Positions 15,001 through 19,022 of a stretch of DNA of 19,022 bases are shown here, piece by piece. How positions within the stretch are numbered: the stretch's first letter is position 1; each line of letters starts with the position of its first letter. Source of the stretch: a virus (Duplodnaviria; Heunggongvirae; Uroviricota; Caudoviricetes); the IMG/VR virus record IMGVR_UViG_2718218402_000001, positions 1-19,022 of that record; one strand, 5' to 3'. A program made the position numbers.

Positions 15001-18000
15001 GGCGACGCCCCGGCATCCTGATCCCCAGCTTAATCACAGGGAGATCACCGCGGTTAACGATAATTCTGGCATTCGGATTTCTGACCGTCGCCCGTTTCAG
15101 TCTGGACCGTTCCTTAACCAGTTTCCGGCGAACCTTTGTCTCCCGGGCAACCTGTGATGAAGACTGATTAATCGCCGTTGTGGCCACGCGGTTAATGGCC
15201 ATTGCTGAAGCCGCCGGAATGGCGTTTTTACGAACCCGGCTCAGATTGTCAATCGCCTGATCAAGCCCTTTTATCGCCATAATTTCACCCTGCGTTTATC
15301 GTCGCCGGTTAACTGCGGGTGGTTGACCACGGTTGAGCCAGAGATAACAGCTGCCCCCGTCATCCGGAGAAACACGATCCACCCAGAATATCTCACCATT
15401 AATGGTCAGCGTGTCACCACGCCGCACGGCACGAACCGTATCCGTCCGCACAAATAATGACGGGCTGCTTCCTTCAATACGGACCCCGCCACCGGCAAAC
15501 CCCAGCGACTCCGGATCGTCAAAAACCCCCTGAACTTCGCTGCCACACTGTGCCCCCGAGGTGAACTGCGCACAGAGCCCCATCACTTCAACAATCGTGC
15601 TGTCCACCCCGGCGAGGGCAGCATCAAAGGCATTCTGAAAATCACGCATGCTCAGCCGTTCCGTGCTGTATCATGGCTGTCGCCAGTGGTAATGGCACCA
15701 GAACACGCATGCCCCGGTACGTCAGTTCAACGGGACGGCCTGTCTCCGGGCAATACCCCATCACATGCAGGCATTTCCGCATACGGACCGCTTTAACATC
15801 ATCCGTAGCATCAGTGTTGTGCAACTGCTCACCATCGTCTGTGTGATTTTGCTCAGGCCCGCTCTCATCACCAGGCATAATGCCCTCCCGGGAAGCAGCA
15901 AGCTCCTCTTCCCACTCAGACACACGTTGCGCAATATCCGCAGCACTCCCCGCCATATCCGCCTCGCGCCCCAGCAGGCCAGCCAGTTGACGAAGACGTT
16001 TCTGATTTTCTTCTTTTGTTGCCATATCAGCCCCCTGTGAAAAAAGACACGGGGGCATTTCGCCCCCGCTCACGGATTATTTCACCTGCACCACCACAAA
16101 CTCATCCGGATCCGGCAGCACCATCAGCGGTGCGGACTGCGTCATGGTAAATTCACGGGCCGGATCGCCCACGGTCAGCCAGTGTTTCGGGTAACGGGAA
16201 GAAGCCACCACACCTTCGGACAACGCCTGCGCATCCTGAATGGCACCGTAACAACGGATCCCATCTGCAGCCGTATTTCCCAGGACCAGCGTGCCCTCCG
16301 GCAGATAACGTTTTTCGGTACCGTCCTCTGCCACATAAGACGTTTTCGCCACCACAATGGCCAGATCGCCGTAATACCCTTTGAAAGACACCACCGCCCC
16401 CAGGTCTTTCACTGCCGTTTCGAGTTGTGAATTTGAGCCGCGACGGGTATCCAGTTTTTCGCGGAACAGCTTAAAACCATTCAGCAGACGCCAGACAGCA
16501 CCGTCCATAATGGCAATATTCACAAGACCGCTGGCCTGATCGCAGTAGAGGTCAATATCATGCGTCGGATCAAACGTATCACGGTCCTGCTCAGACCATT
16601 TTTTACCGTCGGCCTGCTCAATGTTATTTCCTTCAGAGCGTCCAAAATCCACCTCGACAGTATCAAACTGATCCCCTTCCATGGTGTATTTGCCATACAG
16701 CACGGCATTCACCGCCTGCATTTCTTCCACCTGGACAATGGCATGCTCTTCCTGTTTGAGGTTATCGGTGATGATACGCAGACGACGGTAGGCCGGGTCG
16801 TTCAGTTGAGCCGGATCTTCACCGGGAAGACGCTCAACCGCCTGCTGGTAATTAAATTCGTGTTTCGGCTTGACGTAGCCCGGACGTAACACGCGGGTTT
16901 CACCACCGCGATGACGCAGCACTTTTCCTTCAACAACCGGGGAGACATAGGCCGCCACCGGCGTTTTTCCGGTAATTTTGTCCAGCATCACCTCTTCGGT
17001 ATGGAAATTCACCGTACGGCGGAAAAACAGCTCCAGAAACAGCGCACGAAATTTCACTTTTTGTTCGGTATAACCGAGTAACTGGCGGGTCGTAAACAAT
17101 CCCATAAATCAGTTCCTTTCATTCAGAAATCAGTCAGGCCACCGCGGTGGCCTGATAACGTGTTACGGCAGCGCCGCGTGACTCAGGGCACTGCCGGCAA
17201 AGGCATTTGCCTTTTTGTGTTCATCCACACTTTCAGGCCAGCGGATTGCCTCCGTCGCAAAGGTCCCCGACTTGTAATACGTCAGTACCGTCTCTGTGCC
17301 TTCAAGCGGCAGTACCAGTATGCCAACTGCACTACCGGCTTTCTGTCCGTCCCAGACCACCAGTTTCCCGCTGGCTTCATCCAGCATCAGGGGCGTCAGT
17401 GCCGGTGTTGCCGAGGAAATCCCGCTGCTGCCTGTGGCGGTATGAGCCGGATCATTACCGGCAAAAATACGTACTTCCGCACGCTGTTCAGTGATGTTTT
17501 TCGTTACCATATTGTAAAAACCTCCTGTTGATGGTCAGCACTGACTTCATGGCATGGCCATGAGCATTTTCACGTCCGCATCACCGTCTGCTGACGTCTG
17601 TGGCACGCCACCCTGTACCGCAGCCGGTGAATGGTTCGCCATGATGCGTTCAAACAGGGCGGTTGTGGATGCAGAGACCGGTTCTGCCTTACCTGATCCC
17701 GCAGCCAGCACAGCCCGGGCGCTCTCCACAGTCATTCCCGGGCAGGCAGCCAGCTGTTCAGCCTGCGCCTCAGCCCCTTTTGCCTCATCCAGTGCCATGA
17801 TCTGATCACGGAGTGAGGGTCCGGCATCCGCCTGCGGTGAAGCAGCCAGGATCGGGCGGGCTTTTTCCACCGTCATCTCCGGCATCGCCGCCAGCGTTGC
17901 CGCCAGTTGTTCACGACCGTTCGCTTCTTCACACGCCATAATGCGATCGGCTTCACTCTGCGTGGATGCCACCGGCTGCTGCGGTGCCGCCGCGGCCAGA

Positions 18001-19022
18001 ATCGCCCGGGCCTGTTCAACGCTCATGCCCTGTTGTCCTGCCAGCATCGTGGCAAGCTGTTCACGTCCTTTCGCTTCCTGGCATGTCAGGATCCCCATCA
18101 CTCGCTGGTTCTCCTGCGCGGCGGCTTCCGTTGCAGTTAATTGCGGCATAGTGCCTCCTCTGACATTACTGTTCAGCGCCGTGGCCATCACACTGATGGC
18201 ATCCGACGCATTGACTAATTCATCCGCCAGCCCGGCCTCAATGCCGGACTGACCTTCAAAAACGGCGGCCTCTGTTCCCGTGACGGCATCAACAGACAGA
18301 CCGGTAAACATGGCCACTTTTTCGGCAAACATCCGGCGCGCCGCATCAATGCGCTGCTGCATGTCCTGGCGAACCTCTGCCGGTAAGGCTTCAAACTGAT
18401 TGCCATCCACCTTGTGCGCCCCTGAGTAAATCAGCGTGATATCCACACCGGCCTGCGCCAGATGACCGGCATAGCTGACATGGCTCATCATCACGCCAAT
18501 GGAGCCGATACGGGATGTCTGGGTAACCAGCCGTCGGGAGCAGGCCGACGCCAGCAGCATGGCTGCAGAACAGGCCGTGTCATTGCACAGTGCCCAGACC
18601 GGCTTCTGCTGACGGAGGCGGTAAATCATGTCAGCGCAGTCAAACGCGCCGGCGGCCTGCCCGCCCGGACTGTCAATGTCCAGCAGTACGCCCCGCACCT
18701 GGCTATCCGCCATTGCCTGCTGAAGACAGGCGACAATGCCGTCATAGCCTGTCATTCCGGAAAATGGCCGCATACCACCCAGCCGGTGCACCAGCGTGCC
18801 GGTCACCGGCAGTACAGCAATACCGTTCACCACCCGGTAAACACGGGCCGGTCGTTTACCTCCGGCCATGTACTCGTCCGTTTCAGCCAGCAACAAGGCG
18901 GCTATATGACGCTCGCGCAGTTTGCCATGATTTTCTGGCACGACCTGGCAGCACCGATCCTGGCGGGAATTATTACCGCAGCGATTGTCGGCTGGTGGCG
19001 TAACCGGAAGTAAGGTGAAAAC

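Follow-up and report, generated by a model that had tools for sequence, protein, structure and literature searches.

Sequence analysis of the triplicated 'Tri box' region in a phage 21-type protease-scaffold gene

In phage lambda, the S49 prohead protease gpC and the scaffold gpNu3 are encoded in one frame, with the scaffold gene nested within the protease gene and followed by the genes D and E. Yeast two-hybrid partners of lambda Nu3 are Nu3 itself, gpE and gpC (PMC3224144). In phage 21, genes 5 and 6 take these places, and the GenBank record 'Bacteriophage 21 head gene operon' (M81255) holds three repeat_region features in gene 6, namely the Tri1, Tri and Tri3 boxes, each labeled 'function unknown; putative'. 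Literature searches on phage 21, Nu3 and the Tri boxes returned no description of these boxes. The source of the record is Smith & Feiss 1993 (Gene 126:1). This work concerns the corresponding region in a viral DNA stretch of 19,022 nucleotides (nt) (Caudoviricetes; IMG/VR record IMGVR_UViG_2718218402_000001, positions 1 to 19,022), of which the whole is hereafter called the window. A first-pass annotation of the window had noticed three related copies of a module of ~50 amino acids (aa) in what it took to be the C/Nu3 scaffold region.

On sequence grounds, the three copies correspond to the triplicated 'Tri box' region found in head genes of the phage 21 type. Window positions 17547-18892 are 98.8% identical at the nt level to phage 21 genes 5/6 over 1346 nt, and the three tandem boxes of gene 6 are found at their annotated positions (Table 1). 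The window further shares with phage 21 the nested gene 6 start with its ribosome-binding site (RBS) and the downstream shp/D and gp7/E genes, whereas it differs in lacking the first ~55 codons of gene 5 and in a few amino-acid substitutions. Given this identity and the boxes in M81255, the finding was already known, and any novelty implied at first pass has to be given up. The assignment to a C/Nu3 scaffold region is well founded. The open reading frame (ORF) has the N-terminal S49 peptidase domain expected of a lambda-type protease-scaffold, which matches Pfam PF01343 Peptidase_S49 (E 5.3e-35, 121 bits against a cut-off of 24.9), the SppA structure PDB 3rst (E 2.5e-16) and NCBIfam SppA_dom, and PHROG 53 'head maturation protease' spans the whole 464-aa protein (E 1e-206). 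Together with the D-like and E-type genes downstream, these matches place the ORF at the C/Nu3 position of a lambda-like head operon. The lambda-type gene order (portal, C/Nu3, D, E) is found for C/Nu3, D and E; the portal gene is missing from the window because the prophage is truncated at 18892.

The three related copies, hereafter T1, T2 and T3, are real. The modules have a length of ~45 aa and a pairwise protein identity of 47-61%, and their pairwise BLOSUM62 local alignment scores of 87-101 compare with 26 +/- 5 in shuffles (z = 12-15), with none of 2000 shuffles scoring as high as observed. A non-circular hidden Markov model (HMM), trained on 45 relatives of full length with one module each, matches the window protein three times, with 72, 60 and 51 bits (E 1e-24, 6e-21 and 5e-18). 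The PHROG families 'head scaffolding protein' and 'capsid assembly protein' likewise match each module, in three stretches, and no Pfam or NCBIfam family was found for the module region of the window protein. The consensus of the unit reads x-R-I-M/L-x-x-x-E-A-K-G-R-E-x-L-A-x-x-L-A-x-x-P-G-M-T-V-E-x-A-K/R-x-I-L-A-A-A-P, within which the pattern EA-G-(R)E...LA...A...L is invariant in all three copies. The range first given for the triplication, 17652-18104, covers T3, T2 and most of T1, and falls short at one end, as T1 extends to about 18110-18119.

The fourth, partial copy that had been proposed beyond these three did not hold. It comes down to the residues ERIMA, a non-significant resemblance: the alignment scores of the C-terminal tail (residues 428-464) against the modules do not exceed the mean of shuffled sequence (z -0.2 to -0.9), and no match of the single-copy HMM falls in this tail. 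ERIMA is instead part of a tail motif, a-L-[FD]-x-[FL]-M, with a lambda counterpart, DRLMQ, after its one module. Elsewhere in the protein, FAEKVAMFTGLSVDA (residues 205-219, about 18285-18329, minus strand) is weakly matched by the same HMM, below significance (E 0.1); it lies within the S49 domain and ~7 residues downstream of the column where annotated lambda Nu3 starts, and the match is probably due to chance.

The single frame would yield a long product, gp5, comprising the S49 prohead protease and the scaffold part (the analogue of lambda gpC), while an internal Shine-Dalgarno (SD) sequence and ATG in the gp5 frame would give the nested gp6, the scaffold and Nu3 analogue. The window contains such a nested gene with its own SD and ATG and a C-terminus in common with gp5; the start ATG is at 18147-18149, arranged as AGAGGAGG-N4-ATG (18147-18161). 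The arrangement AGGAGG-N4-ATG, which covers Gly-Gly-x-Met (G-G-x-M) codons, occupies one alignment column in the window, phage 21, Gifsy-1, phi80, N15 and lambda. The annotation of phi80 and N15 places the nested start at this column; in Gifsy-1 and lambda the column is unannotated, with the lambda SD and ATG located at about nt 5328-5344 of NC_001416. The annotated lambda Nu3 start (nt 5132, MDATRQ) has a weak and distant SD and aligns with a non-start ATT in phage 21 and in the window. Because SD and ATG are conserved at the G-G-x-M column while the annotated start is weak and is a non-start codon elsewhere, we propose that the conserved scaffold product may start there, which would give a lambda product of 131 aa rather than 201. 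As the gp6 start at 18149 is placed 11 residues before T1, a phage 21-type gp6 would consist of an 11-residue leader, the three modules and the tail only. This gp6 and annotated lambda Nu3 are 200 and 201 aa long, each with a net charge of -10, but the nested scaffold products of phi80 and N15 have 137 aa, so that the idea of a conserved scaffold length was set aside and the match is probably a coincidence. The phage 21 record OL657228 also marks two 'CII binding sites' on the plus strand, antisense to the scaffold gene (about 17897-17910 and 18131-18144), which rest purely on the pattern TTGYN6TTGY. At least the first of them may owe its existence to the repeat and not to regulation, since it falls in the repeated E-Q-L-A-A codons of the modules.

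To count modules across relatives, we ran a module profile of 47 positions over 1.84 billion representatives clustered at 50% identity, which yielded 1405 matching proteins at E <= 1e-3. Among the best 150 of these 1405 representatives, 136 are single-copy, 10 carry two copies and 3 carry three. One copy is found in 49 of the 51 proteins of >=380 aa, and 48 of these 51 have 36-66 aa between the end of the last module and the C-terminus. This exhaustive search was used for the counts since a word-indexed protein search returned mostly contig-end fragments, unfit for that purpose; short 'stand-alone' module proteins, considered as separate scaffold genes, were rejected because they are truncated at contig ends. 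When the window protein is aligned with phage 21 gp5 and lambda gpC, exactly one copy is seen in lambda, as the first-pass annotation had stated, and the outcome that it named as a refutation, an equal copy number in lambda and most relatives, did not occur. Three copies occur in ~20 of the 124 matching phage records (phage 21, Gifsy-1, ev017, 4A7, 1W/3W/D2 and the PhiR phages), and the remaining records are single-copy, including lambda, phi80, N15, HK225 and mEp237; viable phages of both kinds exist. The neighborhood is conserved as well: the module protein is followed by an HDPD decoration protein and then by Phage_cap_E, and the module is always accompanied by D-type and E-type head genes. 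In these comparisons, the Tri unit is the single element that lambda-like (E-type capsid) scaffolds conserve strongly, and protease and scaffold have it in common.

The three-copy allele was detected in 1863 of 5426 complete Escherichia coli genomes (34%; megablast, coverage >=80%) and is 100% identical in several O157:H7 strains. A four-copy form (P0027) is present at full length in 105 of the 5426 genomes; its inter-copy identity of 68-88% suggests a recent expansion or gene conversion, unlike the old triplication of the window. One E. coli contig with a four-copy variant is that of GCA_032727965.1 (L096). Two-copy clusters are rare (1-3 member sequences) and resemble recombination products, with P0020 being a T1/T2 hybrid and P0016 and P0021 internal T2 deletions. 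In more distant lineages, P0147 and P0124 represent separate duplications.

The claim that DNA similarity between the copies is modest and the duplication not recent is borne out. DNA identity among T1-T3 is 53-62%, synonymous sites between copies are saturated and the same codon is used at fewer than half of the conserved residues; on this identity and codon usage, the triplication is old. Tandem Repeats Finder reported no repeat in the window DNA, because the copies are too diverged, and the only output of a seed-based repeat finder was families of 12-15 nt that derive from codons of RIMA and EQLA. When three-copy proteins of E. coli, Salmonella, Providencia and metagenomic origin are compared, T1 is always the best match of T1, and T2 and T3 mostly match their own positional counterparts. 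In these proteins, T2 and T3 are 55-62% identical to each other, and T1 is 42-60% (usually about 50%) identical to either. T1 bears the N-terminal signature ENxRVMGIL, as does the single copy of lambda, which marks T2 and T3 as the additions. All 87 three-copy loci that were fetched have three intact modules. Among 48 distinct alleles, the number of extra amino-acid states for each codon is 0.17, 0.25 and 0.35 in the module cores of T1, T2 and T3 and reaches 0.73 in linker 1. A scan of viral contigs contributed only loci of 96-100% identity, all three-copy, which say nothing on diversity, and a scan of genome contigs contributed six loci only.

Structure predictions were made with AlphaFold2. 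The single-module model (T3 with the tail, from a 65-sequence alignment) reaches a predicted local distance difference test (pLDDT) score of 86-94 and shows three helices: a short helix, a turn at EAKG and two more helices joined at PGMT. After T3 come a less confident tail helix and then a terminal helix. In the full gp6 model, pLDDT is 70-80 across the modules and low in the linkers, with a predicted template modeling (pTM) score of 0.27. These models predict gp6 as three separate small bundles on a flexible string, and the module is probably an autonomously folding domain. Foldseek searches of the Protein Data Bank (PDB) with the three-module and single-module models gave nothing at E < 1, and no PDB sequence was significantly matched by the module profile. 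Module charge ranges from neutral to acidic (net 0, -4 and -3), and the isoelectric point (pI) is 4.4-6.3 for the modules and whole gp6, which has a net charge of -10.

Upstream of the nested gene, the window departs from phage 21. Phage homology stops abruptly at 18892, and from 18893 an Ldr-family type I toxin gene follows, whose intact ORF lies on the plus strand within 18893-19022 (MTLAQFAMIFWHDLAAPILAGIITAAIVGWWRNRK) with its ATG ~6 nt past the junction. The ldr gene is present in almost every E. coli genome; at the junction it is without its native 5' region, and the protease gene encodes 464 aa, compared with 501 aa for phage 21 gp5. The 18892/18893 junction was found in none of the 5426 complete E. 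coli genomes and could be either a rare deletion or an assembly join. Given the end of phage homology and the ~55 missing codons, the prophage survives on this side as a remnant, in which the nested scaffold gene and RBS are intact. A prophage of E. coli O157:H7 PV15-279 (1174571-1183173) carries a scaffold gene 100% identical to that of the window. Compared with window positions 14343-16854, it has a deletion of most of the major capsid gene and of head-completion genes, and its portal and terminase genes are frameshifted. From this deletion and these frameshifts it follows that many genomic three-copy alleles would sit in defective prophages.

The Tri module normally occurs singly, 36-66 residues before the C-terminus, and in the phage 21 lineage two further copies are located between the ancestral copy, T1, and the tail, so that gp6 would present three modules on short flexible linkers plus the tail. 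Each module would act as an interaction unit that binds scaffold and protease to the major capsid protein (at the inner shell) and/or to each other, a scaffold chain with three in tandem would be multivalent, and unequal recombination between the repeats would change the copy number. A multivalent capsid- or scaffold-interaction unit is the likeliest role that we infer for the Tri unit. Hints in this direction are the yeast two-hybrid partners of lambda Nu3 (itself, gpE and gpC) and the helical coat-binding units known from other scaffolds. The reading as a whole, in which a Tri-box region with nested gp5/gp6 carries modules that are capsid/scaffold interaction units made multivalent by triplication, may be right or wrong with about even chances. 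The scaffolds of P22, phi29 and 80alpha bind coat protein through a helix-turn-helix, likewise a small helical unit near the C-terminal end of an otherwise flexible scaffold, and the P22-type element is a plausible functional analogy for the Tri module. The Tri module differs in having three helices instead of two and a tail of 36-66 residues after it, and in being tandem in the window; no sequence or fold match to the P22-type helix-turn-helix was detected, and the basic binding face is absent. Several observations weigh against an interaction role of this kind. The coat-binding element of those other scaffolds is a helix-turn-helix that in P22 is basic, unlike the neutral to acidic modules; the tail at the C-terminus, in which motifs are conserved as well, could be the site of capsid contact instead; the nested gp6 start is labeled putative in the annotation; and the two-copy deletion forms and the range of 1-4 copies indicate that the exact copy number is not strictly required.

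Alternatively, the extra modules could be a structured spacer that sets the length between the protease and a capsid-targeting C-terminal tail, replacing the long low-complexity linker of single-copy phages, which takes up the linker-length idea of the first-pass annotation. Both functional ideas of that annotation, an altered scaffold stoichiometry and an altered linker length, are still reasonable as possibilities. Single-copy proteins do have a long Ala/Thr/Ser/Gln-rich linker ahead of the module. Lambda, which belongs to the same family as the window gene and shares its gene order (S49 protease, in-frame nested scaffold, D, E), module and tail motifs, has its one module after an extra 36-residue low-complexity linker that is absent from phage 21; the phi80/N15 nested product opens with ~50 linker-type residues and Cedecea has a poly-Thr stretch, whereas T1 of the three-copy form begins soon after the nested start. 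The equal length and charge of gp6 and annotated lambda Nu3 would also fit, yet this match is the probable coincidence mentioned above, and the estimated distance from the GLADEL(V/I)N motif at the protease end to the C-terminus is ~150 aa in lambda and ~220 aa in phage 21, so that length is not conserved. A spacer, moreover, has no need for sequence conservation, yet the invariant pattern and the position-specific orthology are kept across genera. We regard a mainly spacing role as unlikely.

It is similarly improbable, in our judgment, that one module is enough and the extras are by-products of unequal recombination that are tolerated but bring little or no selective benefit. The natural range of 1-4 copies, also within E. 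coli prophages, the existence of two-copy deletion derivatives and the constraint that falls from T1 to T3 are what redundant duplicates would lead one to expect, and since many three-copy prophages may be defective, the persistence of the allele is weaker evidence than it appears. Against this, the protein motif is kept in all three copies despite saturated synonymous sites, the same three positions are retained in E. coli, Salmonella (Gifsy-1) and Providencia, and the 1-3 sequences of the two-copy clusters contrast with a three-copy allele in about a third of complete E. coli genomes. Helix-hairpin-helix-like repeats that contact DNA during packaging were considered and rejected as scarcely credible: Pfam PF00633 reaches 13.3 bits against a cut-off of 24 (E 0.081) in one stretch only, the modules and gp6 are acidic, and the lambda scaffold is degraded and removed before DNA entry. 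Going beyond the interaction reading itself, the module could be an uncurated interaction domain whose copy number (1-4) tunes scaffold valency and thereby scaffold-to-capsid stoichiometry or assembly kinetics, with the phage 21 lineage having traded a disordered linker for folded units; we offer this extension tentatively and consider it rather doubtful.

Table 1. Window coordinates of the protease-scaffold gene, its modules and boxes, and the adjoining head genes
Feature	Position	Strand	Basis or remark
Module T1, residues 275-327	17961..18119	minus	Profile core residues 278-322 = 17976-18110; orthologue of lambda single copy
Module T2, residues 328-375	17817..17960	minus	Profile core residues 332-372 = 17826-17948
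Module T3, residues 376-427	17661..17816	minus	Profile core residues 380-416 = 17694-17804
Tri1 box	17979-18082	minus	M81255 feature, falls within T1
Tri box	17832-17942	minus	M81255 feature, falls within T2
Tri3 box	17688-17801	minus	M81255 feature, falls within T3
C-terminal tail, residues 428-464	17550..17660	minus	Terminal motif KMLMAMP; not a module copy
Predicted tail helix TTALFERIMANHSP	about 17631-17672	minus	Overlaps T3 linker
Putative nested in-frame scaffold gene, phage 21 gene 6 analogue, 200 aa, MPQLTATEAA...	17547..18149	minus	M81255, OL657228 annotation
Putative Shine-Dalgarno AGAGGAGG of nested start, from Arg-Gly-Gly codons	18154..18161	minus	RBS annotated in phage 21 records
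Analogue of lambda C and phage 21 gene 5 (S49 prohead protease joined to scaffold modules)	17547..18941	minus	ORF, 464 aa
S49 (SppA/ClpP-like) peptidase domain, residues 109-256	18174..18617	minus	Pfam, PDB SppA 3rst, NCBIfam SppA_dom
Lambda D-like decoration gene	17163-17510	minus	ORF list; downstream of C/Nu3 ORF
E-type major capsid gene	16077-17105	minus	62% identical to lambda E; downstream of C/Nu3 ORF

For the window itself, these results are of little consequence, as the phage 21 annotation has included the repeat for decades and the allele is carried by a third of complete E. coli genomes. For the wider family, they describe the Tri unit as the only conserved domain of lambda-like scaffolds, one without a curated family or solved structure, predicted to be a separate three-helix bundle and occurring naturally in 1-4 copies, and they point to a conserved nested start that differs from the annotated lambda Nu3 start. 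The natural series of one to four copies may be used by researchers of phage assembly to ask what scaffold valency does.

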